A stretch of 50,149 nucleotides of DNA from a virus (IMGVR_UViG_3300037478_000329:1-50149), one strand, 5' to 3'; positions 33 through 50,149 are shown, counted from the stretch's first letter. Made by a program: numbers and translations. Notes: generated from the sequence alone by a model not told the origin.

Positions 33-277
33 CTCGCAACGGTACCGCGGAGTGCATGCCGGTGAGGGTCGCCCATGCAATACCTCGCGAGCACGGACTT
101 CGCGGCTCGCAACGGTACCGCGGAGTGCATGCCGGTGAGGGTGCGCCCAGCGACGGTTCCACGTCCGCGGCTCGCAACGGTACCGCGGAGTGCATGCCGG
201 TGAGGGGTCGACGCCTTGGCCATCGCAGGCGACCCCACCCTCTCGCAACGGTACCGCGGAGTGCATGCCGGTGAGGG
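33..277. CRISPR. CRISPR mini-array, part 2 (continues from the window end across the circular junction)
   Basis: Identical 36-bp repeat CTCGCAACGGTACCGCGGAGTGCATGCCGGTGAGGG at 33-68, 106-141, 171-206 and 242-277; unique spacers of 37, 29 and 35 bp. Confidence 0.9.
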
Positions 278-2145
278 TGTTCTCACTAGACTGCGAGACC
301 TTCCCCGTCACCGAACGCGAGCCGGTCCCCCGCCTCGTGTCGGTCGCCGTGGCGCATGCGGGCGGGGCGGAGGTGTACCACCGCGAAGATCCGAACCTCG
401 AAGCGATCGTGCGGCACGTGCTCGCGACCGGGATCATCGGAGCAAATCTCACGTTTGACATCACGGTCCTATTGCGACAGTTCCCCGGCTTGCTCCCCGA
501 CGTCATCGCGGCCGGGGACGCGTTCCGCCTGCATGACGTGATCCTCCGCGACCTGCACATCGACATCGCGCTGGGGGAGAACTCGCCCGATCGGGCGTAC
601 ACGCTCGCCGCCATCGTCGAGCGCCGGTGCTCGCACGTGCTGCCGAAGGCGGACACGTGGCGCCTACGGTACGCGGAACTCGATCGGGTGCCGATCTCGC
701 AGTGGCCCGCGGAGGCGTATCAGTACGCCCGCGACGATGCCGTGTGGACGCTCCGAGCCTTCGAGGCGCAGGAGCCGTTCCGCGACTACATCACGCCCGC
801 GCAGGAGAACGCCCGCTTTGACTTGACGCTGTTCTGCCAAACGCTCCGGGGGATCCACACCGATCAGGCGTGGGTCGAGCGCCTCGACCAGCGCTTCCTG
901 CGAGAACTCGACACGCTCGCGACCTTGTGCATGGCCTCCGGGCTCGCGAAGTACAAGCACAAGAAGAAACGCCCGTCGCCGATCCAATGCTGCACGAAGG
1001 CTGCGCAGGCGATGCTTGCGGACCTCGCCGCGAAGGGGCAGGCTAAGGTGCAGTATACGGACCCGACCGACTCGCACCCGAACGGCCAGGTCTGCTTGTC
1101 GTCGGAGGCGTTGGAGAACGCCGGCTTTACTCCGGGGCGCTACCCTCCGGGGCACGACCTCGCGGGGCAACTGAAGCCGGAGATGCATCCGCTCGAAGCA
1201 TATCGCTTGCTCAAGTCCACGCGCACGCGTCACAGCAAGATCGTTCCCGTGCTCCGGCACCCGATCGTCCGCACGAACTACCGCGCGTGCGTCGACTCGG
1301 GGCGCACCGCGTCGCGCGGGTTCAAAGCGGACGGGCTCTATGGATTCTGGGCGCCGTCGTCCACGAACCTGCAGAACCAGGAGCGGGACGAGTTGATCCG
1401 CGGGTGCTTGATCCCGCCGCCCGGCTGCGAGTTCGTGATCTCCGACTTCGGTATGCTTGAACTCGTGACGCTCGCGCAGGTCGAGCTGGACATATGCGGA
1501 CGCTCCGCGCTCGCGGACGCCTTGAACGCCGGGATCGACGTGCATGCGCAGTTTGGCTGCGATATGATCGGGATCGACCTCGCGGACTACAGCAAAAAAC
1601 AGCACGGGTATGCACGCTCGGGGGGCAAGGCATGGAACTTCGGCAAGCCGGGCGGGATGGGTCAAGCGCGGTTCATCGCGTGGGCTCGCAAAGTGTACGG
1701 GGTCGAGCTCACGCCCGACGAAGAGAAGCGACACACCGCGCGGTGGCACGCACGCTACCCCGAGCACCGCTTGTTCTGGGACTGGGTCCGGACATACGAG
1801 CGGGACGGACGCTACACGATCCGGGTCACCCGCTGTGATCACGTGCGCGGGGGCATGCGCTTCCCGGACGCATGCAATACGAACTTCCAAACGCTCGGGG
1901 CGTACGTCGCGAAGCGGGCGGGTTGGAAGTTGTTCCGCGCCTCGTTCGATCCCGCCTCGCCGCTGTTCGGGACCTACCAGTGGATCTTCGTACACGACGA
2001 GTTCGGGACGGTCTGCCCGATCGGACGCGGGGCGGAGGTCGCGGCAGAGCAGGAGCGTTTGATGATCGAGGCGGCGGGGGAACTCTGCCCCGACGTGCGG
2101 ATCGGAGTCGAGACGGTGATCAGTGATCGGGGGGCGAAGCCTTGA
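271..2145 (+). CDS. polA: Family A DNA polymerase with 3'-5' exonuclease domain
   Basis: ExoI LDCETF, ExoII GANLTFD, ExoIII YARDDA; NLQN; motif A SDFGMLEL, motif B RSGGKAWNFG, motif C VHDE. Start placed at GTG 271 (GGAG at 258-261); alternatives are ATG 265 and GTG 277. Confidence 0.93.
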   Translation: MRVFSLDCETFPVTEREPVPRLVSVAVAHAGGAEVYHREDPNLEAIVRHVLATGIIGANLTFDITVLLRQFPGLLPDVIAAGDAFRLHDVILRDLHIDIALGENSPDRAYTLAAIVERRCSHVLPKADTWRLRYAELDRVPISQWPAEAYQYARDDAVWTLRAFEAQEPFRDYITPAQENARFDLTLFCQTLRGIHTDQAWVERLDQRFLRELDTLATLCMASGLAKYKHKKKRPSPIQCCTKAAQAMLADLAAKGQAKVQYTDPTDSHPNGQVCLSSEALENAGFTPGRYPPGHDLAGQLKPEMHPLEAYRLLKSTRTRHSKIVPVLRHPIVRTNYRACVDSGRTASRGFKADGLYGFWAPSSTNLQNQERDELIRGCLIPPPGCEFVISDFGMLELVTLAQVELDICGRSALADALNAGIDVHAQFGCDMIGIDLADYSKKQHGYARSGGKAWNFGKPGGMGQARFIAWARKVYGVELTPDEEKRHTARWHARYPEHRLFWDWVRTYERDGRYTIRVTRCDHVRGGMRFPDACNTNFQTLGAYVAKRAGWKLFRASFDPASPLFGTYQWIFVHDEFGTVCPIGRGAEVAAEQERLMIEAAGELCPDVRIGVETVISDRGAKP

Positions 2146-6942: not shown

Positions 6943-7511
6943 GTAACATCCTGGTCCGCCTCGTGCGGAGAAAGCAAGACATGGCCCCCGATCAACGAAC
7001 CTACGGCGCGCCGATCAAGCCGGCGCATCACGACGCCCCCTGGTGGTACCGCCTCGCGGAGCGCTTCGCCCCCGGACGATGTCGCGAGATCCCCGAAGCG
7101 CAGAACCCCGATCGGATCGTCCTGCGGCAGGTCGCGATCATCAAGCGCTACGTGTACCTGCAACAGTTCGCGAGCGCGGAGGATCCCCGGTACATGCATT
7201 CGCACCAGTGGCACCGGACGATCGCGCTCGGGTTGTGGGGCGCGTACGTCGAGCACCGGATCGCGGGACCTTCGAAGCGTCGGCGAGCGCCGTACTGCTA
7301 CACCATGGACGCGTCGATCGTGCACCACGTGCAGGACGTGACGCCGGGGCATACCTCGATCTTCGTCGGGCTCCGACGTGACGACGATCTCAAGCACTAT
7401 TACGGGACGCCTGCGACGTTTGGCGCCGCGGACGTGAGCCTGGTCGACGGGCCGCAAACCTTCCGGCGACTTTGGACCGATCACATCAAGGTCATGGTAA
7501 AGCGGATATGA
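6939..7511 (+). CDS. cupin-like hypothetical protein
   Basis: HSHQW..GAYVEH..HHV cupin-like metal ligands. Confidence 0.6.
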   Translation: MSNILVRLVRRKQDMAPDQRTYGAPIKPAHHDAPWWYRLAERFAPGRCREIPEAQNPDRIVLRQVAIIKRYVYLQQFASAEDPRYMHSHQWHRTIALGLWGAYVEHRIAGPSKRRRAPYCYTMDASIVHHVQDVTPGHTSIFVGLRRDDDLKHYYGTPATFGAADVSLVDGPQTFRRLWTDHIKVMVKRI

Positions 7512-7843
7512 GTCGCCACATGAACGCCGCGGACTATCACCGCGCAGTGCTCGACCTGGAGCGACCATCGCCGCACGGGCAAGCGATGCACGCGGCACTC
7601 GGGGCCGCGAGTGAGGCGGGGGAGGTCGCGGGGTTGTTCCGCAAGGGTGAAACCGACCCGCTCGACCTGCTCGATGAATACGCGGACGTGCTGTTTTACC
7701 TCGTGCTCGGGCTCGACGCCGCCGGGTTCGACATCTCCGAAGCAATGGCGTGGAACGTCATGAAACTCGAACGCCGGCGCGAGCACGGCAAGGACAAGGC
7801 GGCCGAACGGCTGTTACTGGAGTCGATCTATGGTGAAAAGTGA
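7508..7843 (+). CDS. mazG: MazG-like nucleotide pyrophosphohydrolase
   Basis: ALGAASEAGEV..LLDEYADVLFY..NVMKLERR. Confidence 0.85.
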   Translation: MSRHMNAADYHRAVLDLERPSPHGQAMHAALGAASEAGEVAGLFRKGETDPLDLLDEYADVLFYLVLGLDAAGFDISEAMAWNVMKLERRREHGKDKAAERLLLESIYGEK

Positions 7844-8456
7844 AGCAGAGATCAACGCAGAAAAGGCGGGCAAGCTTGCCCTGGACCTCGTTCCCCCCGA
7901 GTTCGCGGAGGCGGCCGCGGAGGCGTTCGCGTACGGCGAAGGGAAGCACGGCCTGGCGGACAACGGACGCGGCACGTACCGCGTCGCGGGCACCGAACAA
8001 GCGCGCGTGCGGACGCACGTGCAGTCCATGCTGCGGCACCTGAACGCGATCATGGCGGGCGAGCATTACGATCCCGAGTCCGGCCTGCCGCACTGGTCGT
8101 GTTTCTCGGCGCAGGCTGCGATCGTGTTGTCGCTGATCCGCAACCCTCCGGGGGGCAAGCACGACCCCGCGGACGCGCGCTGGATCCCGCCCGCTGGGGC
8201 GGCAGATGGTGAAGACTTGTGGGAAGATGACGACGCGTGGGCGCTCCCCGACGGGTGGGCATGGTCTGCCATGGGAGTGCCGAACGATCGCACTGGCTGG
8301 TGCGCCACCGGCCCGTGCACGATCTGGGGATCGGATGCGCCTTACGGATTGGATCCGTATCATGTGTTTCCGGAAGACCCGCCCGAATCGGATCCCGTCG
8401 CGGAAAGTGTCCGGCTGATCGTGTGCAAGCGCAACGGGGTCGAGCCGATCGCATGA
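7830..8456 (+). CDS. DUF5664 dATP/dGTP diphosphohydrolase-domain protein
   Basis: GKLALDLVPP..AFAYGEGKHG..SMLRHL..DPESGLPHW. Confidence 0.8.
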   Translation: MVKSEAEINAEKAGKLALDLVPPEFAEAAAEAFAYGEGKHGLADNGRGTYRVAGTEQARVRTHVQSMLRHLNAIMAGEHYDPESGLPHWSCFSAQAAIVLSLIRNPPGGKHDPADARWIPPAGAADGEDLWEDDDAWALPDGWAWSAMGVPNDRTGWCATGPCTIWGSDAPYGLDPYHVFPEDPPESDPVAESVRLIVCKRNGVEPIA

Positions 8457-10354
8457 CCACCTACCAGATCGTGCTCGGGGACAACCTCGACACCTTGCGC
8501 CGCCTGCCGGATAACTGCATCGACTCCGTCGTTTGCGATCCTCCGTATGAGCTCGGGTTCATGGGGAAGAAGTGGGATGCCTCCGGTGTCGCGTTCGACG
8601 TCGAGCGATGGGGCGAAGTCCTCCGCGTGCTCAAGCCGGGCGGGCACCTGCTCGCGTTCTCGGGGACGCGGACGTATCACCATATGGTGTGCGCGATAGA
8701 GGACGCGGGGTTCGAGATTCGGGACCAGCTCGGCTGGTTCTACGGGCAGGGAATGCCCAAGAGTCTCGATCTCGCGCGGCAGGTAGATATGTTCCGGTGC
8801 ACGCTGCCGGGTCGACACTGCGACAAGAACTTGCCTGCGAAGCGGCGCCCCGATGATCACCTCTGCCCCCCGCACCCGGACCGCGCTCCGTACGTCGGAC
8901 GTCGCACGGCGCTATCGCCCGCGCAGGAACCGATCGTCCTCGCGCGCAAGCCACTGATCGGCACCGTCGCGGCGAACGTGCTGCAGTACAACACGGGCGG
9001 GATCAACGTCGACGCGTGCAGGCTCGCGACCGCGGACAAGTGGGACCCGGTCGAGACGAACGGCACGCCGTCGATCGCGTTGCGAGGCGGGGCGGATGGT
9101 AGCCTGAACAACCAGCGCAGCGGCTCGCACGAACTCGGCCGCTGGCCCGCGAACGTGCTCCTAGATGAATGGCTGGATCCGGTGCTATGCTTACGGAGCA
9201 ACGCCCCCGTGGCGGTGCAGGAGTTTTATGCCAGTCACGAAGATGTGCGAGGTGTGCGGGTGCCCGATGACGATCCCGCCAAGCCGGATGAGAAGGAAGC
9301 GCTTCTGTTCCCGGGCCTGCTACGCGGCAGCACTGTCGGCCCGCATGCAGGAGTCACACCCCATGCAGGGGCGCAAGCACTCGGAGGATTCCCTGGCCCT
9401 TATGCGAGCGGCGAAGGTAGAGTCCCCGAAGGGGCCAGCGTCACATTCGTGGAAGGGAGGCAAGCACATGAACCGGGGGTATGTGATCGTGGCCCTGTCA
9501 GCGCTGCCTCCGGAGGAACAGATCCTGTTCGCGTCTATGGCGACGCGCAGCAGCCAGAGGTGCATCCCGGAACATCGTCTGGTGATGGCGCGTCACCTGG
9601 GGCGCCCATTGTCCTCGGAGGAGTCGGTGCATCACCGCAACGGGATCAAGAGCGACAACCGGCTCACGAATCTGGAGACACTGGACAACGCAACGCACAA
9701 ACGCGAACACACGGAGATCCTGCGAGAACTCCGTGCTGCGCGGGCCGAGATCGATCGGTTGAAGCATGTGCAAGCGCGATCCCGGAAGCGTGGTACAAGT
9801 ATTTCATAAGGACGGGGTACGCGATCCGCCGCGGCGCCGCGGCGATGCTCGATGAGCAGAGCGGGATCGCGAAGCCCCGTCGACATTTGGACGATTGCCC
9901 GGTCACACACGGTGCGTCGGCCGACTGCGTTGCCGGATACGAATGCCCGTCGGGCTCCGGCGGCGCGTCCCGGTTCTTTTACGTGAGTAAGGCGTCCCGT
10001 GCCGAACGCGAAGCGGGGCTCGACCACCTGCCCCGCCAAAGCGCCGGTGAGCTCACGGGCGGCCGCAAGGAAGGTTCCGCCGGACTCGACAACCCCCGCG
10101 CCGGTGCCGGGAGAACGAGCGCGTCGGGCAGGGCGAACACTCACCCGACCGTGAAGCCGATCGCGCTCATGCGTTGGCTCGTCCGCTTGATCACACCTCC
10201 GGGCGGCGTCGTGCTCGATCCGTACTGTGGCAGTGGCTCGACTGGCTGCGCCGCGGTCCTCGAAGGCTTCGCGTTTTTAGGTTGCGAACTGTCGGAGGAA
10301 TACTGTACGATCGCGACTGCCAGGATCGCTCACGCGATGGCGCAAGCATCATGA
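8453..10354 (+). CDS. N6-adenine/N4-cytosine DNA methyltransferase with a roughly 222-codon insertion
   Basis: IDSVVCDPPY, RVLKPGGHL, EPIVLARKP, GRWPAN, HPTVKP and VLDPYCGSGSTG motifs. Confidence 0.9.
   Translation: MTTYQIVLGDNLDTLRRLPDNCIDSVVCDPPYELGFMGKKWDASGVAFDVERWGEVLRVLKPGGHLLAFSGTRTYHHMVCAIEDAGFEIRDQLGWFYGQGMPKSLDLARQVDMFRCTLPGRHCDKNLPAKRRPDDHLCPPHPDRAPYVGRRTALSPAQEPIVLARKPLIGTVAANVLQYNTGGINVDACRLATADKWDPVETNGTPSIALRGGADGSLNNQRSGSHELGRWPANVLLDEWLDPVLCLRSNAPVAVQEFYASHEDVRGVRVPDDDPAKPDEKEALLFPGLLRGSTVGPHAGVTPHAGAQALGGFPGPYASGEGRVPEGASVTFVEGRQAHEPGVCDRGPVSAASGGTDPVRVYGDAQQPEVHPGTSSGDGASPGAPIVLGGVGASPQRDQERQPAHESGDTGQRNAQTRTHGDPARTPCCAGRDRSVEACASAIPEAWYKYFIRTGYAIRRGAAAMLDEQSGIAKPRRHLDDCPVTHGASADCVAGYECPSGSGGASRFFYVSKASRAEREAGLDHLPRQSAGELTGGRKEGSAGLDNPRAGAGRTSASGRANTHPTVKPIALMRWLVRLITPPGGVVLDPYCGSGSTGCAAVLEGFAFLGCELSEEYCTIATARIAHAMAQAS
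9228..9809 (+). CDS. HNH homing endonuclease (Zn finger + NUMOD3-like + HNH) nested in another frame of the methyltransferase
   Basis: AGGAG at 9219-9223 then ATG 9228; CEVCG..FCSRAC, GRKHSEDS, EHRLVM..VHHRNGIKSDNRLTNLE. Confidence 0.88.
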   Translation: MPVTKMCEVCGCPMTIPPSRMRRKRFCSRACYAAALSARMQESHPMQGRKHSEDSLALMRAAKVESPKGPASHSWKGGKHMNRGYVIVALSALPPEEQILFASMATRSSQRCIPEHRLVMARHLGRPLSSEESVHHRNGIKSDNRLTNLETLDNATHKREHTEILRELRAARAEIDRLKHVQARSRKRGTSIS

Positions 10355-11741: not shown

Positions 11742-12151
11742 AGCTTCACCCCCCGGAGGGCAAAGCGCTCCCGCGAGTTCGGGCGCTCGACATACTCGCC
11801 GCTGCGGATCATGATCTTGTCCCCTACCTTTGCCTTCGCGAGTTTCTCCCGCGCCGCGGCGCTGGGCTGATAGGCCGCGGGGTGATCCATTCCAGGGACC
11901 GCGAGGATCACCCGCCCGCTCGGGTTCACCGCTTCGACCGTGGCGCGCACGCGGTGCAGCGGCGTGCTCACGATCTTCGACTCGCCGACTTTCGCCGGCA
12001 CCGGCGGGCCGACTTCGCGGGTAGCAGGAGCGACGCCGCGGAGGCGGTGCACGAGCATGACGATTGGCGCGAGTTGTTCGTCGAGCGCGGCGATCTGCTC
12101 GTCCGTGTAGGAGAGAATCTCTTCGAGGGATGGGAGGGCTGGCGTGTTCAT
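11738..12151 (-). CDS. hypothetical protein
   Basis: ORF divergent from the promoter region at 12.2 kb. Confidence 0.65.
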   Translation of the reverse strand: MNTPALPSLEEILSYTDEQIAALDEQLAPIVMLVHRLRGVAPATREVGPPVPAKVGESKIVSTPLHRVRATVEAVNPSGRVILAVPGMDHPAAYQPSAAAREKLAKAKVGDKIMIRSGEYVERPNSRERFALRGVKL

Positions 12152-12250
12152 ATTCCCGGTCTACCCCTGCCCACCGATCTTTCAAGCCGGGGAAACTCGA
12201 CAAAATCACAACTCCGTGAAAGCCGGCGATTTTTCCGCCGATCTTTTTTC

Positions 12251-12279
12251 TTGCGTTCACCAGTCCCACCGTTTATGGT
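12251..12279 (+). promoter_or_regulatory. sigma70-type promoter, leaderless start
   Basis: TTGCGT-17 bp-TATGGT, then 6 nt to GTG 12286. Confidence 0.6.
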
Positions 12280-12285
12280 GGCGAC

Positions 12286-12573
12286 GTGTATGATCAAAAC
12301 GTAATGGCGGATGCATTCGATGCAGCGTGCGAACTCGCGCGCCTCATGACCGCGCACGTGGACGGCGCGACAACGGACGTGCTCGACGATGCGGACGTGC
12401 TCGTGATCGCCCGCGGCTGGCGGACGGTCCGGCTCGCACCGCTGCGCTCCGGGCGATGGGGCGTGTCGGACGCACGGGCGGGCGCAGGGGAGATCTCGTG
12501 GACGGTCGACGGCGCGGGCGTCTACGATCTCCTGCGCGAAGCGCTCGGGATAAAAAACGCCGCGGTCGCTTGA
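12286..12573 (+). CDS. hypothetical protein
   Basis: ORF immediately after the promoter. Confidence 0.65.
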   Translation: MYDQNVMADAFDAACELARLMTAHVDGATTDVLDDADVLVIARGWRTVRLAPLRSGRWGVSDARAGAGEISWTVDGAGVYDLLREALGIKNAAVA

Positions 12574-12605
12574 CGGCACCAGGATAAACCTGCATGCTTG
12601 TTTTC
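12570..12605 (+). promoter_or_regulatory. promoter/operator, copy 1
   Basis: TTGACG-17 bp-CATGCT-7 nt-ATG; shares ATAAACCTGCATGCTTGTTTTCATGG with the copy at 13876-13911. Confidence 0.75.
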
Positions 12606-13466
12606 ATGGTCGCTCACCCGTTCGTCGCAGCCGGATACCCCGCCCCCTACACCTTCGTGCGCGCGGCCTACCGCGCCCACGTCATCCCCGGAATGGATGG
12701 GGATATCCACAAGCCGGGCGGCACCTGCGACGTGTGCGGGACCTGCTTCAAATACGGCGCGACCTTTCGCGCGGCGGACGGGGTCGAGTTCACGACCGGC
12801 TGCGACTGCGCGGTCAAATCCTTGTGGGACGTCGACCGCGAGGTCGCGGAGCGGGCAAAGGCCTGCAAGCGCGAGATCCTCGCGGAGCGTCGCGCCGAAC
12901 TCCGGGCGGCGGAGCGGGCCCGCCGCGAGGAACTGCACGTCGAGCGGGAGAATGCGGAGCGCGCCGAGTTCGAGTCGTGCGACGTTGCCGCGCTCGCGGT
13001 CATCGCCCACCCGCTCGACTGGGCGGCGGCTAAGGGGCTCTCATGGGCGGACGCGGTTACGTGGCACGCGGAGCGCGGCAACTTCCGCAAGGCGTCCGAG
13101 CTCGCTAGCGAAGGACACGCCCTCCTGCAGGGCGGCGAGTTCGAGGCGGTCCGAGTCCTGCCGACCATCGACGCGGCCGCCTCGAAGCACGTGGGCGCCG
13201 TCAAGCAGCGCTTAACCTTTACCGCCCGAATCCTCGCGATGGTCTGGTTCGACTCCGACTGGGGCGGGGTGTGCTTCGTCAAGATGGTGGACACCGCCGG
13301 GAACCTGCTCGTGTGGAAAACCGGGACCCCGTTCACGGACGAGAACTGCAACCGACTCCCCGTCGGGACCTGGGTCTCGTTCAAGGGGACCGTGAAAGAC
13401 CACGGAACCGACAAATACAACGACGGTGCGCAGTGCACCTACCTCACCAGGTGCAAGCAGATCTAG
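12606..13466 (+). CDS. Zn-binding plus C-terminal OB-fold-like phage protein
   Basis: CDVC..GCDC; C-terminal HVGAVKQRL..LVWKT..FKGTVKDH..TYLTRCK. Confidence 0.7.
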   Translation: MVAHPFVAAGYPAPYTFVRAAYRAHVIPGMDGDIHKPGGTCDVCGTCFKYGATFRAADGVEFTTGCDCAVKSLWDVDREVAERAKACKREILAERRAELRAAERARREELHVERENAERAEFESCDVAALAVIAHPLDWAAAKGLSWADAVTWHAERGNFRKASELASEGHALLQGGEFEAVRVLPTIDAAASKHVGAVKQRLTFTARILAMVWFDSDWGGVCFVKMVDTAGNLLVWKTGTPFTDENCNRLPVGTWVSFKGTVKDHGTDKYNDGAQCTYLTRCKQI

Positions 13467-13486
13467 CCCTGCCCGCTCGACCCGCC

Positions 13487-13518
13487 GCCCCGTACCTCGC
13501 AGGAGGACGGGGCTTTCG
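13487..13518 (+). terminator. conserved bulged hairpin, copy 1
   Basis: GCCCCGTACCTCGCAGGAGGACGGGGC followed by TTTCG, after the stop at 13466. Confidence 0.7.
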
Positions 13519-13522
13519 CGGT

Positions 13523-13699
13523 GTGAGCGACCGATCACCTATATCCCACCTACTCCGGCTAGCCAAGTCCCGCGTGTTCGCAGCGCAGGACGCGGCCGAG
13601 CGCCTGGACGATTACGAGCTCCGCCGCCGGCTGGCACTCGCCCGCGACTGGCTCGAAGCCGCGGACCGCCGCGCGGACGATCTGTTGGGGGACCGATGA
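13523..13699 (+). CDS. hypothetical helical protein
   Basis: GTG 9 nt after the hairpin; its stop overlaps ATG 13696. Confidence 0.55.
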   Translation: MSDRSPISHLLRLAKSRVFAAQDAAERLDDYELRRRLALARDWLEAADRRADDLLGDR

Positions 13700-13893
13700 A
13701 GGCCGGACCAGGTCGGGGGCGGAAAGGTCACGCGGCGGACGCGAAGATCATCCCGGTCTCGTTCCGCGTGTCATACGCGCAGGCGGTAGACCTCGCGCGC
13801 GCGGGCAAGGCGCGGGGCTTGTCGCGGCACCAGGTCGCGGCCGAACTGGTCGCGCACCTGCTCACGAAAAAAGATTTGACGCCGGGTAAATAA
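13696..13893 (+). CDS. ribbon-helix-helix-like DNA-binding protein
   Basis: GRGRK arm, IIPVSFRVS strand, then AVDLARAGKARGLSRHQVAAELV helices. Confidence 0.65.
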   Translation: MKAGPGRGRKGHAADAKIIPVSFRVSYAQAVDLARAGKARGLSRHQVAAELVAHLLTKKDLTPGK

Positions 13894-13911
13894 ACCTGCA
13901 TGCTTGTTTTC
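13876..13911 (+). promoter_or_regulatory. promoter/operator, copy 2
   Basis: TTGACG-17 bp-CATGCT-7 nt-ATG 13912, with an upstream A-tract. Confidence 0.75.
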
Positions 13912-14106
13912 ATGGACAGCGCAACGCTCACCTTCACCTTTACCGCCCACGACTGCCGCACCGCGCGCGAGATCGTCATCCGCGTCGATCAGCCGGACGA
14001 CGGGCGCCCGTACGTCGAACTCTCGGACGAGGCGGCGGAGCGCGCGATCCCCCTCGCTGCGAAGCGCCTGGGCTGCACGGAGGACCAGGTCGAGATCACG
14101 GACTAG
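13912..14106 (+). CDS. hypothetical protein
   Basis: Lies between promoter copy 2 and hairpin copy 2. Confidence 0.65.
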   Translation: MDSATLTFTFTAHDCRTAREIVIRVDQPDDGRPYVELSDEAAERAIPLAAKRLGCTEDQVEITD

Positions 14107-14128
14107 CCGCCCGCCGGCTCGACCGCCA

Positions 14129-14160
14129 GCCCCGTACCTCGCAGGAGGACGGGGCTTTCG
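14129..14160 (+). terminator. conserved bulged hairpin, copy 2
   Basis: Identical 32-mer to 13487-13518. Confidence 0.7.
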
Positions 14161-14164
14161 AGGT

Positions 14165-14443
14165 GTGAATACCTTCACCGACTCACCCACCCTATACGAC
14201 ATGCGCACCGCGGAGATCCTCTCGGACTCCGAGCGCGTCGCCTGGCGCCGCCGCACCGGCGCGTGCGACTTGCCCCCGCCTCCGCCGTTCGGCGGGACGC
14301 TCGACGCGGAGCTCGACGGCATCTGCCCGCTGCGCCACGCGGTCCCGACCGCCATGGTGGACGCCCCGCCGCAGGTGATCGTCACCGCCTACCACGTCAC
14401 CCGGCAGCGGATCGCCGGAGCGATCGCGAGGATCGGCCGATGA
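14165..14443 (+). CDS. hypothetical protein
   Basis: GTG 9 nt after the hairpin (alternative ATG 14201); its stop overlaps the next ATG. Confidence 0.5.
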   Translation: MNTFTDSPTLYDMRTAEILSDSERVAWRRRTGACDLPPPPPFGGTLDAELDGICPLRHAVPTAMVDAPPQVIVTAYHVTRQRIAGAIARIGR

Positions 14444-14598
14444 AAAGTCTCATCGCGATCACCTTGTTCCTGTCTTGCTCCTGGGGCACACCCGCGAGCG
14501 ACTACCGGCCCGCGCGTGCGGGCGTCCGCCAAACCGTCCACGCGCTCACCCACGACGCGTACGATCTTGGACGCCACGAGGTGATGCCGTGGTATTGA
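14440..14598 (+). CDS. small protein with a signal- or lipoprotein-like N-terminus
   Basis: MKSLIAITLFLSC. Confidence 0.5.
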   Translation: MKSLIAITLFLSCSWGTPASDYRPARAGVRQTVHALTHDAYDLGRHEVMPWY

Positions 14599-15227
14599 CC
14601 ATCCGCAAACGCATCTGCGATTCGCTAACGCAGACGAAGTCCGCGCGCGAGACCGCGGCCGAACTCGGGCTGGATTACGACGCCGCGACGGACGCCGTGT
14701 TACACCCGGGCTGGTGCGTCGAAGTCGACGTCGACGAAGACACGACGATCGGGGGGGAAGCTCCGCACGTGCTCGATCCGATCGACGCGCTGCGCGTGCT
14801 CGACGTTCCGATCCGGGCGTGGCGTGACGGTACGACGTGGAACCCCCGCACCCGCTGGCTTGCGGACCGCCGCGCCCGGGAGACCACGTTCACCGCGAAC
14901 CTGGTTCCGGAGCGAGTCCGGCGGCGACGCCCCGCGAGGACGGCGGATGATCTGCGCACGGTCCTGCTTGAGCATGCCACCAAGTTGCATCCGTGCTTGC
15001 CGGATGATGATCTCTGCTTGTGGGAACTGTTCTCGTACGCCGCCTACGGCAACTTCGAGCGGCTGCGCAGGCGCATGCTTGACCACGCGGATCGCATCGA
15101 ACGACATTACGCGTACGACGAGATCGCGGAGGACCTCCGCGACATGATCAACGGGCACGATGCGGACGCGGATCGGGACGTATACGGGAACGACCTACCC
15201 GATCGCGAACCCGACGGAGATCGCTAG
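14595..15227 (+). CDS. hypothetical protein
   Basis: TTG overlaps the upstream TGA; last plus-strand gene before convergence. Confidence 0.6.
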   Translation: MTIRKRICDSLTQTKSARETAAELGLDYDAATDAVLHPGWCVEVDVDEDTTIGGEAPHVLDPIDALRVLDVPIRAWRDGTTWNPRTRWLADRRARETTFTANLVPERVRRRRPARTADDLRTVLLEHATKLHPCLPDDDLCLWELFSYAAYGNFERLRRRMLDHADRIERHYAYDEIAEDLRDMINGHDADADRDVYGNDLPDREPDGDR

Positions 15228-15947
15228 TTCGTCGGGGATCACGGACTCCGCCCAGCACCTGCAGTTGATCGGCTGCCCCGGCAGCCCTTCGGACGGCGGG
15301 CGATCGTAACGGTGCTTTGTCCCGTCGAGCGCTACATGAGCCGCGCGCACGCGGCTATCCCCCTGCGTGCGCCATATGAACTCGCGGACGCCTACCGCCC
15401 GTGCTCGCTCGCTCTGCACCTGCGCGTGCAAGGTCGAGAGCTGGTCTTGCGCGATCACTTTCAAGCGGCCCTCCGCAGTGCCCCACGTCACGGGGATCCC
15501 TTCGCGTAGCCACTTGCGTGTAAGGTCGGCTGGTTTCGTCCCCTTCTCCAGCGCCTTGATAATGTCCATCCGCATGCGTTTCGCGACTTCGTCCCGGACG
15601 CTCGTGATCTTCGAGGTCGCCGTCTTCGTCCACGCGTCGAGCAGTTTTTTTCCGTCGTACGTCTTCGCGTCCATGCGTGCGCCGTCGCGGATGCGCTTGC
15701 GATCACGCCGGTCGAACGGATGCCACGGACGCGACGCGTCCCCCTCCGCACGCGCGCCGATGTCGTGCACGAGTCCACGGATCTTCGCGTCCGACCAGGT
15801 GCGGCGCAGGGACACCCCGAGCGCAGCAGCGGCCGCAGGCGAGGTGATCCCAGGCAGAGCACGTCGGATCGCAAGCAGCATCGGACGGAGCGCCCGCTGT
15901 AGCACCAGGTCATGACGCCCCGCGGGCTTACCGATCCGTGCCGGCAT
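15195..15947 (-). CDS. Mu gpF-like head morphogenesis / minor capsid protein
   Basis: FIWRTQGDSRVRAAHVALDG..PGQPINCRCWA. Confidence 0.88.
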   Translation of the reverse strand: MPARIGKPAGRHDLVLQRALRPMLLAIRRALPGITSPAAAAALGVSLRRTWSDAKIRGLVHDIGARAEGDASRPWHPFDRRDRKRIRDGARMDAKTYDGKKLLDAWTKTATSKITSVRDEVAKRMRMDIIKALEKGTKPADLTRKWLREGIPVTWGTAEGRLKVIAQDQLSTLHAQVQSERARAVGVREFIWRTQGDSRVRAAHVALDGTKHRYDRPPSEGLPGQPINCRCWAESVIPDELAISVGFAIG

Positions 15948-17748
15948 CGTCGTCCTCGGGCGCCTCGTGCGACTTACCAAGTTTTAGAACGTCCGCAAGG
16001 CTCACCGTCTTGCGTGCACCAAATCCCCAGAACGGAAGCGTGCCACGCTCCATCGCAAGCGTAAGCGTGCGCGTGGGGACGCCCAGCTGTTTGGCCGCCG
16101 CCTGCACGCTCACGACGTCGGCGGGCACGGGCGCGGCGGACGGTTGCGCCTCGTCCACCTCCGGACCGCCTGCAGGCGCAGGGGCAGCGTTCACCGGCGG
16201 GGGCGGGATCGGTTGACCCTTGATCCGCGGAACGGCGAGGCCGATCAACCAGGCCGCTTGCTCGGGGGTGAGTTCGCCGGCGTTCATCTTCGAGAGCGTT
16301 TCGGAGATGCCGGAGATCTGCGCGCCGTTCATCGCTTCCTCCGCGACGCTCAACGCTTCCTCCGCGACGCTCAACGCTTCGACCGGTGCAGCCGCGGGCG
16401 CCTCCGCCGCGACCTGCGCCTCGACCTCGCCCGGATTGATCGGCAGGTCGGCGGGGTCCGCCTCCGGCTCGACCTCGAACGCCCCCTGGTTGCCGTCGAC
16501 AAAGCGAGCCTTGCGTACCTCGTCCGCGGTCACGCAGCCATTTAGCATGTAGATCTGATCGGACTCCGCGTTTGTCTTCGCGGTCATGGCTGCAGTTTCC
16601 TCCGACTTCGAATGCAGCGGATTCCAAACGACCGTCCACGAGGTGATCGGCCACCCCTGCCACGCGAAGATCAGTTCGAGGATCCGGTCGAGGACCGGCG
16701 TCGCTTGATCGTCCTGCCACTGCTCGACGCGCGCGAACCAGATCTCCTGCGGCCCCGAGAGTTCGCCCGCGTTCAGTCCCGCGGGGGACTCGTTCATCAA
16801 GATCTCTTTAGGCATCTCCCCGACGGCTGCGAGACGGGCGGCGCAGCGGTCGACGATCTCGAATGCTCCGGCGGTCGTGAGCGTCAAGTTTCCGATCTCG
16901 TCCGCCTGATCCATCGCGAGGAACCCGTGCGAGTCGAGATTCTGCCGGACCTCCGCAAGCCCTTTGCGGATCTTGAGCTTGCCCGCGTCGGAGTTCGCGT
17001 CCTGCCGATAGCCGGTCATCTTGAGATACAGCACGGACGAGATGTAAAGCATGCTCACCGCGTGGCTGATCGCCGCGCCGTCGCGCCCAAGGTCGTCGAA
17101 GATTCGCTCGATGATCGACGGACCCCAGCCGTTCCGGTTGTCTTCTTCGAGGTCCTCGATCGGGATATCGATCGCCGACATAGGGATGCATCGGGAATGG
17201 TGCAGTTTGATCGGCTCGCCGTGCGATGTCGAGATCTGATACTCCAGCACCTTGCCGTAGGTGGACGACATGATCCCGACATCCTGCGCGAGCGGCTGCG
17301 CTCGACGGGCCGGGATCACATTCAACGGGCGCAGCGGGGTGTGCGACGTCACCTGCAGCGGTTGATCAGTCGGCATGCCGTCGATCACCGGGAGCACGAT
17401 CAGCGCCCCCCCGTCGCGGCGCGACCACTTGCCCGCGCGACGTAGCGCCCGCGTGACGCGGAGATCATCGCAGAGTGAATGGAGTTTCCCCTGGTCGATG
17501 TCGACCGGGTTCCCGTCCGCGTCATGCACGTCAGTGAGCGTCCAGCCGCGGCGCAACCCGTCGTCGACCATGCGGTCGACAATCTTCGCGACTAGCGCGT
17601 TTTGCTTGTAGAGTCCCCGGATTACGGCGTCATCGAGCCGGTCCCGCTCGACGAACGTGGTCCCCACGGACTTGTCGCGGATGCTCCCTAGCGACCCGGA
17701 AAGGGTCGCCCAGCCGTCGGTGCGGGGGGCTTGTGTTTCATCGGTCAT
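15928..17748 (-). CDS. portal protein (DUF1073-like) with C-terminal HTH extension
   Basis: LYKQNALVAKIVDRMVDDGLRRGW, LHHSRCI, WGPSIIE, ILMNESPAGLNA; adjacent to gpF. Confidence 0.85.
   Translation of the reverse strand: MTDETQAPRTDGWATLSGSLGSIRDKSVGTTFVERDRLDDAVIRGLYKQNALVAKIVDRMVDDGLRRGWTLTDVHDADGNPVDIDQGKLHSLCDDLRVTRALRRAGKWSRRDGGALIVLPVIDGMPTDQPLQVTSHTPLRPLNVIPARRAQPLAQDVGIMSSTYGKVLEYQISTSHGEPIKLHHSRCIPMSAIDIPIEDLEEDNRNGWGPSIIERIFDDLGRDGAAISHAVSMLYISSVLYLKMTGYRQDANSDAGKLKIRKGLAEVRQNLDSHGFLAMDQADEIGNLTLTTAGAFEIVDRCAARLAAVGEMPKEILMNESPAGLNAGELSGPQEIWFARVEQWQDDQATPVLDRILELIFAWQGWPITSWTVVWNPLHSKSEETAAMTAKTNAESDQIYMLNGCVTADEVRKARFVDGNQGAFEVEPEADPADLPINPGEVEAQVAAEAPAAAPVEALSVAEEALSVAEEAMNGAQISGISETLSKMNAGELTPEQAAWLIGLAVPRIKGQPIPPPPVNAAPAPAGGPEVDEAQPSAAPVPADVVSVQAAAKQLGVPTRTLTLAMERGTLPFWGFGARKTVSLADVLKLGKSHEAPEDDDAGTDR
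16333..16380. repeat. 21-bp tandem duplication in the portal linker (EALSVAE x2)
   Basis: CGCTTCCTCCGCGACGCTCAA twice plus a partial third copy. Confidence 0.85.
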
Positions 17749-17759
17749 CGGGATATCCT
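17731..17759 (+). promoter_or_regulatory. promoter for the counter-oriented protease gene, overlapping the portal start codon
   Basis: TTGTGT-17 bp-TATCCT-6 nt-GTG 17766. Confidence 0.5.
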
Positions 17760-17765
17760 CGGGAC

Positions 17766-18200
17766 GTGACCCGCCTCGCCTTGCTGCTCGTGTTGCTGCC
17801 CGCCTGCTACTCCGGAACGCTGGACGTTTACTCGGCGCAGCCGTGGACGGACGCGCAACGGGACGCGCTCGATGTGACGTCGGCCTTGATCGGCCGCGAG
17901 ATCATGATCGTGGATCGGGAATACGGTGCAGTGTGGATCAAGTGGCGCGATGCCCCTTGGGTGCACCCGAAGCTTGGCCGGATCTCCGGCGCGGCAAGCG
18001 AGCATCAGATCGGCTGCAAGCGTCACTTGCATAGCATTGCGGACGGCTACGTGATCGCTCACGAGATGGGGCACACGTTCGGCCTGGAGCACTCCGACGA
18101 CACTGCGGACATCATGCACGAATCTTGCCGTGGCGAGTTCTTCGGCGAGTTCGAGACGCTCGATCGCCGGCTCGACCGGTTCGATTTGTGCGTGCCGTAG
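17766..18200 (+). CDS. matrixin/metzincin-type zinc metalloprotease lipoprotein
   Basis: Signal peptide with lipobox LPAC; HEMGHTFGLEHS and Met-turn DIM. Confidence 0.82.
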   Translation: MTRLALLLVLLPACYSGTLDVYSAQPWTDAQRDALDVTSALIGREIMIVDREYGAVWIKWRDAPWVHPKLGRISGAASEHQIGCKRHLHSIADGYVIAHEMGHTFGLEHSDDTADIMHESCRGEFFGEFETLDRRLDRFDLCVP

Positions 18201-44545: not shown

Positions 44546-44712
44546 CCCGCGCCCAGTTCATCCGATGGGCGCGAGATCATGGGTTTGAGTGTCCCGAAGA
44601 TGAAGCGCGCGCCTTGATCAAAGCTTGGCGTGCGCTATGGCCCACGCCTGAGCACCAGGCATGGCTCGCACACGCGAATGCTCGCGCGCTGAAACGAGGG
44701 GATCGTGGGTAA
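44542..44712 (+). CDS. 56-aa protein resembling the PolA fingers helices
   Basis: AQFIRWARDHGFECPEDEARALIKAWRALWP resembles ARFIAWARKVYGVELTPDEEKRHTARWHARYP of the phage's own polymerase. Confidence 0.55.
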   Translation: MTRAQFIRWARDHGFECPEDEARALIKAWRALWPTPEHQAWLAHANARALKRGDRG

Positions 44713-45553
44713 GCGATGCCTGCACCAGTGGACGGGCGACCCGGTGACCTGCCGCGTGTGCGGGAAGCGGGCGCACGCGAGCCCGTCGCAGATTGAAACA
44801 TGGGGGCGCGTGCAGCTTGAGAAGTCGGACGACGGGACGCTGGTCCCGCGCCGCGTCGGGTGCCGCCGCAAGTGGAAGTTTCAACGGCTCCGGGGGAAGC
44901 AAGGCTCGACGCCGGCCGCGGAGTTCGGGCACCAGTGCCACTTGAACCTTGAGAACTACATGCGCCACGGCACGTGGACGCCGGAGATCGCGAAGTCGCC
45001 CGAAGGCAAATGTCTCGCCGCAGGTCTCGCGTACTTCCCCCCGCCGCGCGTCGGACTCGCGGAGACGGAGATCTACGAAGAGATCGGGGGCGTGTTGTGG
45101 ATGATGCAAGCCGACGCGGTCTCGCAGTGGATCCCCGGCGTGTCGATCCTCGTGCAGGACCTCAAGACCACGGGCGACCTCAAGTGGCAAAAGACCCCCG
45201 AACAACTCGCGGACGATCCGCAGCGCATCGCCTACGCGGCCTGGGCGGCGTCACACGTCGACGTGCGATCGGTGACGGCGGAATGGGTCTACTGCCGACG
45301 CAAGCCTCCGAAGGCGAGCACGACGCGTTACGAAGAGTCGGTCGAGGACACGCGCAAGCGCTTGGACATCCTGATCGAGGAAACCGTCCGCCCCATGCTC
45401 GCCGCGAACTGCTTGCCGCTCGAAGCGTTCCCCCGGGATGGACTGCAGACCGGCGAGTGCGAGCGGTACTCTCGGGACGGCTGCGAGTTCAAAGCGGAGT
45501 GTCACGCGGGGATCAATCCTCTTGACTTACTCGCCCATCGTCTCGTAAGTTGA
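44705..45553 (+). CDS. Cas4-like / RecB-family PD-(D/E)XK exonuclease with Fe-S cysteines
   Basis: SPSQI..CRRKW, GHQCH, QAD, QDLKT, DPQRIAYA, C-terminal CERY..GCEFKAEC. Confidence 0.85.
   Translation: MGKRCLHQWTGDPVTCRVCGKRAHASPSQIETWGRVQLEKSDDGTLVPRRVGCRRKWKFQRLRGKQGSTPAAEFGHQCHLNLENYMRHGTWTPEIAKSPEGKCLAAGLAYFPPPRVGLAETEIYEEIGGVLWMMQADAVSQWIPGVSILVQDLKTTGDLKWQKTPEQLADDPQRIAYAAWAASHVDVRSVTAEWVYCRRKPPKASTTRYEESVEDTRKRLDILIEETVRPMLAANCLPLEAFPRDGLQTGECERYSRDGCEFKAECHAGINPLDLLAHRLVS
45522..45551 (+). promoter_or_regulatory. sigma70-type promoter
   Basis: TTGACT-18 bp-TAAGTT, upstream of a GGAG RBS and ATG 45605. Confidence 0.5.
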
Positions 45554-48221: not shown

Positions 48222-49049
48222 ATGTACACACCAGAACAGATTCAAGCCTTGCTTGCGCAGGGATACACGCGAGACCAGATCAACGCCGCGATGGGCGTGC
48301 AGACGCAAGCCGCACCTGCGCCCGCTGCCGCGGCAGCACCCGCGCCACAGGCAAGTCTCGACGCGCTCGCACGAGCGTTGGGCGGGGCCGCTTACGGCAC
48401 AAACGCAGATAGCCGCAGGCTTCCCGACGGCGATCACATCGTCGTGATCGAGGCGATGTCGTACAAAACCGGGCTGCAGTACGGGGACCGGTTCATCTGC
48501 GAGTTCGACCTCGAAGCGTCCTCGAATCCCGAGGCCAGCGGGCGCTACTCGATCGCGGTCGACCCCGCCGACAAGTGGGGATATGGGCCGGACGAGATCA
48601 AGGGGATCATCGCCGCGGCGAACGAGGCGAAGAACCCCGCATCAGCCGTGCGCGCGCGGTGGGAACCGCAGTACCTTTACGACGCGATCGCCCCGGCGCA
48701 GCCGTTGAAGGGCGGACGGCTCCGCGTACGGACGCACACGAAGATCGCGGAGAAGTCCGGCAAGCCGTTCGTCAAGCACGAGAACTGGCGCGCGGCCGGG
48801 AGCGAGTCGATCGAGCCCGCGTCCCTGCCCGCGCTGCCGGCCGCTCCCCAGTCCATGCCGTCGCTGCCCACGCTGCCGCCCATGCCCGCCGCGGCTCCGC
48901 CCGCGGGGTTGCCCCCGCTCGCGCCTCCGGCCGCTCTGCCGCCGCTCGGGGCTCCGCAGGGATTGCCTCCGCTCTCCGGCGCTCCGCAAGGCATCGCGCA
49001 GGGCTGGCCGCCCGGTCTCCCGATGCCGGGGCAGGGGGGTGCGCAGTGA
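48222..49049 (+). CDS. putative ssDNA-binding protein with Pro-rich tail
   Basis: LPDGDHIVVI..FICEFDL..VRTHTKIAEKSGKPFVKHENW OB-like core; replication context. Confidence 0.6.
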   Translation: MYTPEQIQALLAQGYTRDQINAAMGVQTQAAPAPAAAAAPAPQASLDALARALGGAAYGTNADSRRLPDGDHIVVIEAMSYKTGLQYGDRFICEFDLEASSNPEASGRYSIAVDPADKWGYGPDEIKGIIAAANEAKNPASAVRARWEPQYLYDAIAPAQPLKGGRLRVRTHTKIAEKSGKPFVKHENWRAAGSESIEPASLPALPAAPQSMPSLPTLPPMPAAAPPAGLPPLAPPAALPPLGAPQGLPPLSGAPQGIAQGWPPGLPMPGQGGAQ

Positions 49050-49360
49050 CCGATGCAAAAACCCTGGCGGCGATCTTGGACATCGCCGCCGCGCGATGGG
49101 GCGTAGGCACGCCCGATCCGAGCCTTCGCGGACTTACGGAGGGGCAAATGCTGGACCGGATCCGGCGCTTGCTTGGGGCGAACGCGGGTGAAAAACATCG
49201 AGTGACGGCGGAGTTCGGTACCAAGAGCCTATCATTCGACGTCGATGTGAAGCAGGCATATCTCGCACTCGGCCAAGGCGGCTGGGTCCGCGCGGTGGAC
49301 GGCCACGCCTACAACCTGAACAGCGCGACGTTCGTACGCGTAGCAAGTGATCCATCATGA
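49046..49360 (+). CDS. hypothetical protein
   Basis: GTGA/ATGA coupled to its neighbours. Confidence 0.6.
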   Translation: MTDAKTLAAILDIAAARWGVGTPDPSLRGLTEGQMLDRIRRLLGANAGEKHRVTAEFGTKSLSFDVDVKQAYLALGQGGWVRAVDGHAYNLNSATFVRVASDPS

Positions 49361-49524
49361 ACCGGGTTCAAGAGCCGAAGTGGTATCGGCTGCCGTGCGG
49401 GCTGATCGCCCGGGTCGTGCACCCGCGGTCGACCGCGGAGCAACTGCCCGTCTTCGAACCGATCGACGCGAAGCACGATCCGGAGGCGGCGCTCGCACGG
49501 ATCCCGATTCGGGGCGCCTCGTGA
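49357..49524 (+). CDS. 55-aa microprotein, paralogue A (not in the ORF track)
   Basis: MNRVQEPKWYRLPCGLIARVVHP...; ATGA overlap. Confidence 0.65.
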   Translation: MNRVQEPKWYRLPCGLIARVVHPRSTAEQLPVFEPIDAKHDPEAALARIPIRGAS

Positions 49525-49700
49525 GCGGGCGCGTCCGCGAGCCCCGGTGGTACCGCTTGCCGGACGGGCGCATCGGCAAGGTCGTGCACCTGCCAACGAT
49601 GGGCGAGGCGCTCGAAGAGTTCGACCGCTCGCGCGGGCGGGATCGATCGGAGGCATACCCCGAGCGGCGTGTGCCTGCGAAGTTCAAGCACGAAAAGTAA
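49521..49700 (+). CDS. 59-aa microprotein, paralogue B
   Basis: MSGRVREPRWYRLPDGRIGKVVHL...; GTGA overlap. Confidence 0.65.
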   Translation: MSGRVREPRWYRLPDGRIGKVVHLPTMGEALEEFDRSRGRDRSEAYPERRVPAKFKHEK

Positions 49701-49722
49701 GGGCGACCATGCGCGTCCACCA

Positions 49723-49754
49723 GCCCCGTACCTCGCAGGAGGTCGGGGCTTCTG
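49723..49754 (+). terminator. conserved bulged hairpin, copy 4
   Basis: GCCCCGTACCTCGCAGGAGGTCGGGGC followed by TTCTG, after the stop at 49700. Confidence 0.7.
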
Positions 49755-49991
49755 TCGTGTGACCGCCCGCGCCTGGAAGACTGAGATTCTCGTAACGCCC
49801 GAGCAGGCTTACCTAGGATCGGGAAAGGATCGGGGATCGCAAGTACCCCCGGCCATCAGCATATACTCTGCGAAACCGATGCTAGGACAAAACGCACGCA
49901 AGACCAGGGGCAACCAACGCGGGAGGGATCGTGCACACCGACATAGTCACAATACGGCACCGGTGGGAGATCCTTCGGCCGTAGGGTGCCC
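49755..49991 (+). promoter_or_regulatory. putative array leader / polA promoter region
   Basis: Gap with no convincing gene, containing TATACT at 49862-49867; no clear -35. Confidence 0.45.
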
Positions 49992-50149
49992 CTCGCAACG
50001 GTACCGCGGAGTGCATGCCGGTGAGGGGCTGTATCGGTTGTGCCGACCGATCGCCCGGGCTGGGTCTCGCAACGGTACCGCGGAGTGCATGCCGGTGAGG
50101 GTCGCCCATGCAATACCTCGCGAGCACGGACTTCGCGGCTCGCAACGGG
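49992..50149. CRISPR. CRISPR mini-array, part 1
   Basis: Repeats at 49992-50027 and 50066-50101 (= 33-68), 38-bp spacer at 50028-50065, partial repeat at the contig end. Confidence 0.9.
50034..50148 (+). repeat. terminal overlap identical to 1-115 (circular assembly)
   Basis: 115-bp exact match to the window start; only the last base (50149) differs. Confidence 0.92.

Follow-up and report, generated by a model that had tools for sequence, protein, structure and literature searches.

A CRISPR-type repeat array without cas genes whose last repeat overlaps the predicted start of a phage DNA polymerase gene

We analysed the DNA stretch IMGVR_UViG_3300037478_000329:1-50149 (50,149 nucleotides in full, here called the window), a whole circularly permuted tailed phage of ~50 kb whose two ends share a 115-nucleotide (nt) overlap. 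The element under study is a CRISPR array that directly precedes polA, the gene for a family A DNA polymerase. The reading we favor, at a probability of about one half, is that a cassette made of an anti-repeat, a leader-like stretch and five repeats, without cas genes and likely originating from a type V system dependent on a trans-activating CRISPR RNA (tracrRNA), sits at the start of polA, that the last repeat supplies this start, and that GTG271 is likely initiated by ribosomes that have crossed the array.

The array consists of five identical 36-nt direct repeats spanning the origin (first positions 49992, 50066 (=33), 106, 171 and 242) and separated by unique sequences of 38, 37, 29 and 35 nt, which is the arrangement of a CRISPR array; located in a virus genome without cas genes, it is a mini-array. 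Types II and VI are set aside on the basis of the variable spacer length. As the first-pass annotation of this DNA had noted, nothing separates array and gene: the fifth repeat (R5, 242-277) runs directly into polA. The phage is present in public DNA runs from sediment and soil, which carry X numbers below. The parts of the locus are as follows.

49721..49758, plus strand: repeated phage hairpin element, with a start codon 10 nt further on
49759..50033 and on across the origin to TGA 272-274, plus strand: open frame of 182 codons, starting at GTG49759
49850..49885, plus strand: anti-repeat (tracrRNA-like or leader-repeat), 24/36 identical to the reverse complement of the repeat and 27/36 pairable when G-U pairs are counted
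49886..49991, plus strand: leader-like stretch of 106 nt with a weak plus-strand fold (z -1.7; -2.3 for 49900-49991)
49992..50027, plus strand: repeat R1, contiguous with the leader in run X1 at phage depth (31.3)
50028..50065, plus strand: spacer 1, 38 nt
33..68, plus strand: repeat R2, numbered a second time as 50066-50101 owing to the terminal overlap
69..105, plus strand: spacer 2, 37 nt
106..141, plus strand: repeat R3
142..170, plus strand: spacer 3, 29 nt, found between repeats in runs X1 and X4
171..206, plus strand: repeat R4, with an ATG from which a frame of 26 codons runs, likewise as far as TGA272
207..241, plus strand: spacer 4, 35 nt
242..277, plus strand: terminal repeat R5, identical to the other four, containing GGAG 258-261, ATG265, GTG271, TGA 272-274 and the G of GTG277
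271..2145, plus strand: polA, family A DNA polymerase with the ExoI DxE motif (PF00476, phrog_17), start GTG271 or GTG277

The polA product has the Pol A domain and, near its N-terminus, the ExoI DxE motif, whose residues D9 and E11 are invariant in all 22 aligned PolA sequences. The motif lies near the N-terminus in 50 of the 52 homologues examined; in 48 of these 50 the Asp is preceded by 4-7 residues, and in every one of the 21 closest homologues by 4 or 5. Three in-frame start codons, ATG265, GTG271 and GTG277, follow GGAG 258-261 at distances of 3, 9 and 15 nt and would leave 8, 6 and 4 residues before the Asp, respectively; no start codon occurs between the end of the repeat and the Asp. 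Since the homologues start 4-7 residues before this residue, the predicted polA start is GTG271 or GTG277, both overlapping R5, and the N-terminus is not truncated. The first-pass annotation had put all three starts inside the repeat and had paired GGAG, as the best Shine-Dalgarno sequence, with GTG271. ATG265 and GTG271 indeed lie within the repeat, whereas GTG277 shares only its G with it; the 9-nt spacing of GTG271 holds and its 6-residue N-terminus suits the homologues, but the 4 residues of GTG277 suit them too. ATG265 is disfavored by its Shine-Dalgarno spacing of 3 nt and by an 8-residue N-terminus unseen in homologues. GTG190 was rejected, as it would add a repeat-derived extension and lacks a Shine-Dalgarno sequence.

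Contigs passing from inside the repeat into polA were found in X1, X2 and X3, three of the four runs of the first set (depths 27, 3.5 and 4.4), and in the soil run X8, thus in four of six runs; X4 and X5 did not show the junction. One sediment run may be the source sample of the window itself. The junction contigs hold 28, 28, 19 and 30 letters of the repeat, all below the 31-letter threshold for bridging, so that the read check proposed with the first-pass annotation bears out the crossing into polA and stops short of a full bridge. In X1 the leader side (17.8 kb) has a depth of 31.3 and the polA side (13.3 kb) a depth of 27, and among the loose ends of runs X1-X4 no sequence other than the repeat precedes position 278. 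Records were filtered in the runs examined, where spacers 1 and 4 are uncovered; the order of spacer 4 and R5 is that of the window alone. A chimeric assembly, in which a spacer derived from the polA start linked an array of the host to the phage, would account for repeats at both contig ends and for the fact that no contig reaches 31 letters into the repeat at the junction. It is countered by the phage-level depth of both the leader-repeat and the repeat-polA contigs in X1, the recurrence of the junction in X2, X3 and X8, the absence of any other sequence before 278 in runs X1-X4, and the anti-repeat carried by the leader. The repeat-polA join is therefore very unlikely to be chimeric. The repeat unitig of X1 has a depth of 65.8, compared to 27-31 for its flanks, and is followed only by sequence starting with TG, which only spacer 3 and polA supply. 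We infer from this a shorter array in X1, of about two repeats and with spacer 3 only, an estimate weakened by the record filtering.

CRISPR arrays are regarded as untranslated, and recombination between the repeats easily leads to their loss. In the window, the frame that opens at GTG49759 passes through the anti-repeat, the leader and four repeat-spacer units, and its stop codon at 272-274 overlaps GTG271 as GTGA. The same kind of overlap, NTGA, is found in 12 of 17 hand-picked adjacent gene pairs on the plus strand, many of whose starts have no Shine-Dalgarno sequence. When the cassette was shuffled with jittered lengths, an upstream frame reached polA in 17 of 3000 cases, or in 79 of 3000 if restarts within inner repeats were allowed. 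Fourteen of the 16 possible sub-arrays, including the spacer-3-only form suggested for X1, give coupling or an in-frame fusion to polA; in the single-repeat form and the form with spacers 1 and 2 only, the upstream frame is out of register with polA. The earlier description of the array as the 5' untranslated region of polA is likely wrong, since the array is crossed by an open frame that leads into the start of polA.

The hairpin at 49723 (z -4.2) had been taken as a sign that array and polA share a transcript. It is instead one of four copies of an element repeated in this phage (the others lie near 13488, 14130 and 40576, the last on the minus strand) and also present in other phages. A GTG or ATG stands 10 nt 3' of the hairpin in 4/4 copies of the window and 2/4 copies outside it, and the element may be a terminator or a gene-start element. 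It belongs to a conserved GC element of ~30 nt with AGG in the loop region, which also occurs in the loci L069, L177-L179 and L182 and has no Rfam match. Among relatives, the order Pro-tailed gene, small open reading frame (ORF), polA is kept with little in between (7 loci compared by eye, 36-55% polA identity). In L069 the same hairpin lies ~25 nt 5' of the polA ATG, and its GTG opens a 4-codon ORF that ends in ATGA over the polA start.

Among 90 polA loci of relatives, partly redundant and in 65 cases reaching 450 nt or more upstream, none has an array just upstream of the gene; this is the outcome of the homologue check proposed with the first-pass annotation. Candidate tandem matches in L076, L089, L090, L092 and L118 are all located elsewhere, either >2.5 kb upstream of polA or on its downstream side. 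In the window, the cassette and nothing else lies between GTG49759, the start codon after the hairpin, and GTG277. Because the relatives have no array, the hairpin occurs near a polA start and the cassette fills precisely the interval between two GTG triplets, the cassette was probably inserted at a hairpin-linked start that once belonged to polA. With relatives that do without it and a position between two GTG triplets, the statement that the repeat could not be lost was too strong. In L062:170-567, from the closest relative read, the corresponding site 5' of polA is occupied by ~300 nt that look non-coding and in part resemble tRNA, in which ARAGORN found no tRNA and the Rfam scan no credible family; the site upstream of polA may attract RNA cassettes. 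Further upstream in the window, 49357-49524 and 49521-49700 are two small tandem paralogous ORFs, 72% alike across 64 nt, and a single copy of this ORF type precedes polA in several relatives.

Of the spacers, spacer 2 is matched perfectly and over its full length by a record from run X5 (151 nt, depth 2) whose flanks are not those of an array. The 5' flank of this single protospacer ends in TTG, which fits a plus-strand guide with a T-rich 5' protospacer adjacent motif (PAM), n=1. Spacer 1, one of four spacers tested, agrees in frame with a gene of this same phage (7830-8456) at 26 of 38 positions (8265-8302), a score reached by 1 of 200 shuffles, and this suggests a target in a sibling phage, in the manner of the mini-arrays of archaeal viruses (PMC6858448): spacer 1 may be directed against a homologue of that gene. 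An origin in foreign DNA is thus seen as a perfect match for one of four spacers and is suggestive for spacer 1. Spacers 3 and 4 gave no target in the searches made, which included phage and plasmid collections, and those collections held no credible match to the cassette. In IMG/VR there were no matches to spacers 2 and 3, the two scanned there, nor to exact and gapped patterns of the repeat. The Rfam scans returned no CRISPR family (the second covered R1 and R2), and the minus-strand translation of the array, used as a protein query, found no match. With leader-like DNA on that side and the TTG flank 5' of the protospacer, the plus strand is the more likely sense of the array.

The anti-repeat score of 24/36 within 300 nt upstream was equalled by only 1 of 5000 shuffled repeats, and the plus-strand duplex of repeat and anti-repeat has a predicted energy of -39.3 kcal/mol, compared to -25.6 ± 3.6 kcal/mol for shuffled sequences (1/1000). 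Such a long upstream anti-repeat, as found in tracrRNA-dependent type V systems, points to tracrRNA-type, type V-like processing rather than to cleavage by Cas6 or Csb2. A RuvC effector gene next to the array was not found, and because of this the cassette is not classified as a type V system. By itself, the repeat is predicted to fold no more strongly than shuffled sequences (z -0.77 on the plus strand, +0.66 on the minus strand) and does not form the stable hairpin with a 3' handle typical of the structured-repeat subtypes of class 1, a result compatible with subtypes that have unstructured repeats. The TATACT at 49862, once proposed as a -10 box, sits inside the anti-repeat and was rejected, and a sigma-70 scan of 49000-50149 detected no promoter. 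According to PMC11246509, the duplexes of compact tracrRNA-dependent type V systems are typically cut by RNase III.

The model that came with the first-pass annotation was a class 1 mini-array in which host Cas6 or Csb2 cuts at the polA ribosome-binding site and so ties the polymerase to the activity of CRISPR in the host; on this model the anti-repeat would be a chance match or part of a leader-repeat hairpin. Repeats of 36 nt, spacers of 35-38 nt and a TTN-like flank also suit some type I systems. In cis, moreover, the predicted fold pairs the anti-repeat with R1 alone (0.56, as against 0.0 for R2-R5), and leader-repeat hairpins occur in other types (PMC13187072). On the other side are the shuffle-level repeat hairpin on both strands, the lack of a CRISPR family match in Rfam and the lack of a host array in the genomes searched, and we regard this model as having only a slender chance. 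From that annotation as a whole, the overlap of repeat and start, the intact N-terminus and the real join stand, and plus-strand sense is the likelier one, whereas Cas6/Csb2 processing and the promoter lack support, the untranslated region is likely wrong and the fixed retention of the repeat is too strong a claim.

No TnpB, Cas12 or other Cas gene is recognizable in the phage (63 ORFs scanned against families, plus further profile scans), and PF07282 is absent from all five related phage records scanned. The first 16-18 codons from GTG49759 weakly resemble the N-terminus of TnpB, ranking 1 among 77,674 phage 16-mers with a redundant profile. The sole phmmer match of this stub is an unrelated repetitive ORF. 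A deleted TnpB-type effector is a weak lead, based on this similarity. The 17-base gapped repeat pattern has 45 single matches in GTDB, none of which is an array of this repeat, and BLAST of pieces of the cassette against 301, 401 and 301 genomes of three phyla gave 4, 2 and 1 single weak matches, those involving the repeat never within arrays. A repeat-plus-spacer match in L019 is a chance match inside an unrelated array, and the BLAST match L188 is a host gene.

The position of the cassette also allows for a homing origin, in which R5 and the first ~20 nt of polA formed an original TnpB-style guide that cleaved cassette-free siblings at the empty site, and the array grew from there. The insertion between two GTG triplets at a start codon and the weak TnpB-like stub would agree with this, as would the intact terminal repeat, given that the terminal repeats of type V arrays produce working guides out of the sequence that follows them (PMC6610086 and, for Cas12r, bioRxiv 2026.04.20.719267); homing by TnpB is reviewed in PMC13565253. 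There is, however, no tnpA or tnpB gene and, by Rfam, no group I intron, as an IS605/IS607 element or IStron would have. The flank at the empty site would be GTG, not the TTG of the spacer-2 target, the junction lacks the CGG reported for IS607-type ends in PMC13565253, and no empty allele was present in the runs examined. A homing origin is accordingly rather improbable.

Several observations weigh against the reading we favor. The arrangement is known from one phage only, and the closest relative read (55% polA identity) has no array. The coupling test was devised post hoc, after the frame had been seen; three of four unit lengths being 2 mod 3 is not rare (~11% by arithmetic); and every repeat has its own GGAG and start, so that polA could initiate independently. 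The cassette frame has no coding bias (GC content at third codon positions 0.60, compared to 0.83-0.87), which is expected if only the openness of the frame matters. Genome-wide, 35 of 300 shuffles equal the anti-repeat score, which is then not exceptional; the minus-strand duplex is nearly as stable as the plus-strand one (-38.3 kcal/mol, 13/1000 shuffles); and the best short pseudoknot pairing of repeat and anti-repeat has 7 bp, matched by 393 of 2000 shuffles and thus at chance level. The PAM evidence is one record of depth 2. The TnpB-like stub ranks only 58 with a diverse profile and was not recovered by hidden Markov models (none in Pfam), a word search or an Atlas search, and the genomes searched yielded neither an effector nor a host array that carries this repeat (BLAST sampled phyla other than Myxococcota).

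A rival reading is a dead relic that has lost its effector and makes no working guides, in which the last repeat is a passive start with its own GGAG and the long frame is due to chance. Such a relic would explain why no effector was found in the phage or elsewhere, why no new spacers lie beside the repeat among the loose ends listed (four not shown), and why the array in X1 seems shorter, in keeping with decay by recombination. It sits less well with five identical repeats, the terminal one included, with the perfect match of spacer 2 in a co-occurring sequence, and with an open frame that is rare in shuffled cassettes. We consider it a tentative alternative, on the doubtful side.

If the cassette is active, as our preferred reading has it, the following sequence of events can be proposed. 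After insertion at the old hairpin-linked polA start, ribosomes would enter at GTG49759, translate through the array, and terminate and reinitiate at GTGA with the help of the GGAG in R5, GTG277 being the alternative. The spacers would serve against rival mobile elements through an effector borrowed from the host or from a co-infecting element. Pairing of the anti-repeat and cutting of the repeats could mask or uncouple the polA start, such that one transcript gives either guides or polymerase, and processing would sever the message of polA at its start or upstream of it. GGAG and most of GTGA in R5 would lie within the duplex; as the cis fold pairs the anti-repeat with R1 and not with R5, masking of R5 would need pairing in trans or loss of the upstream repeats. 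From the intact R5 and the polA nucleotides that come directly after it a further guide could arise, which would have no PAM on the phage's own genome if the PAM is T-rich. Most likely, the overlap of repeat and start came about as a side effect of the insertion, now helps to keep the array in place, and did not evolve to sense CRISPR activity of the host.

A more far-reaching version is that a tracrRNA-CRISPR cassette has been turned into a translated leader of polA, with a GTGA restart and a guide switch, in which collapse to a single repeat breaks the register so that replication locks in at least one spacer, and in which the 5' end of polA acts as a guide against cassette-free siblings. 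We hold this to be unlikely. Dependence of the polA start on the last repeat and the array frame would, if true, keep a guide cassette in the genome by simple means, and it would build in a conflict between the use of one RNA as message and as precursor of CRISPR RNA (crRNA). The cassette also points to a tracrRNA-dependent effector with an unmatched repeat. If it is merely a tolerated scar in one phage, its value is modest.

The remainder of the genome is that of a tailed phage, in which family scans recognized capsid, portal, terminase, baseplate, primase and methylase genes in addition to the family A polymerase; a helicase is also present. One polA homologue belongs to a metagenome-assembled genome of Deltaproteobacteria. 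Genes for MazG, a dATP/dGTP diphosphohydrolase and an N6/N4 methylase are grouped at 7472-10354, possibly as a module for nucleotide-pool or base modification. The replication cluster includes a PD-(D/E)XK nuclease (PF12705) at 44705-45553, and Cas4 families had no match in the scan. An exact 26-nt direct repeat stands immediately 5' of ORF starts in a small-gene region (12584-12609 and 13890-13915). A 15.5-kb IMG/VR fragment (L180/L181) is 100% identical to 12125-18152 of the window over the part fetched and, judged from its coordinates, ends short of the array.

A literature search gave no description of a terminal repeat acting as the start of a phage polymerase gene (most subscription journals lay outside its coverage). 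Like the mini-arrays of SPV1 and SPV2 (PMC6858448), the cassette is short and lacks cas genes, has leader-like DNA upstream and carries spacers against mobile elements, here shown for one of four and suggestive for another. Those arrays are intergenic, with 1-2 spacers and host-like repeats, whereas the present one has an anti-repeat, an open frame across the array and a supplied start of a replication gene. In compact type V/TranC loci (bioRxiv 2026.03.27.714800) the repeats measure 32-38 bp, their median number is ~5 and the array is preceded by an anti-repeat; we liken the cassette to them because it has 36-nt repeats in five copies and an anti-repeat ~100 nt upstream. These features, together with a T-rich 5' flank at one protospacer, are shared with Cas12f, Cas12n and TranC, including CauTranC9 of a phage (bioRxiv 2026.03.27.714800; PMC11246509). 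In contrast to those systems, the cassette lacks an ORF for an effector, a weak stub of an N-terminus being the most it may hold, has no significant short pairing, and its array is fused to polA.

For Cas12r (Lalka; bioRxiv 2026.04.20.719267) and for Cas12m of a myxophage (bioRxiv 2026.09.14.751636), phage-borne arrays of type V are described that lack genes for adaptation and have a role, established or proposed, in conflicts among mobile elements. In the Cas12r system a guide forms from the last repeat and downstream sequence (bioRxiv 2026.04.20.719267), as would be possible for R5. Unlike the phage studied here, those phages encode the effector; Cas12r is tracrRNA-free and no tracrRNA is recognized for Cas12m, and the available text of both reports describes no overlap of the array with a downstream gene start. 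Extraneous crRNAs likewise show that an intact terminal repeat followed by non-spacer sequence can be a guide substrate (PMC6610086; PMC13187072); natural terminal repeats of type V-A are mostly mutated, 11 of 14 in PMC6610086, while R5 is intact and followed by the coding start of polA. IStrons and the TnpB elements of the IS605/IS607 families (PMC13565253) resemble the cassette as gene insertions whose RNA could have mutually exclusive uses, and differ from it in their group I intron and tnpA/tnpB genes and in that expression would here be rescued by translation, not by splicing. By analogy with these systems, the cassette appears to behave like a virus-borne mini-array with type V-like RNA parts.

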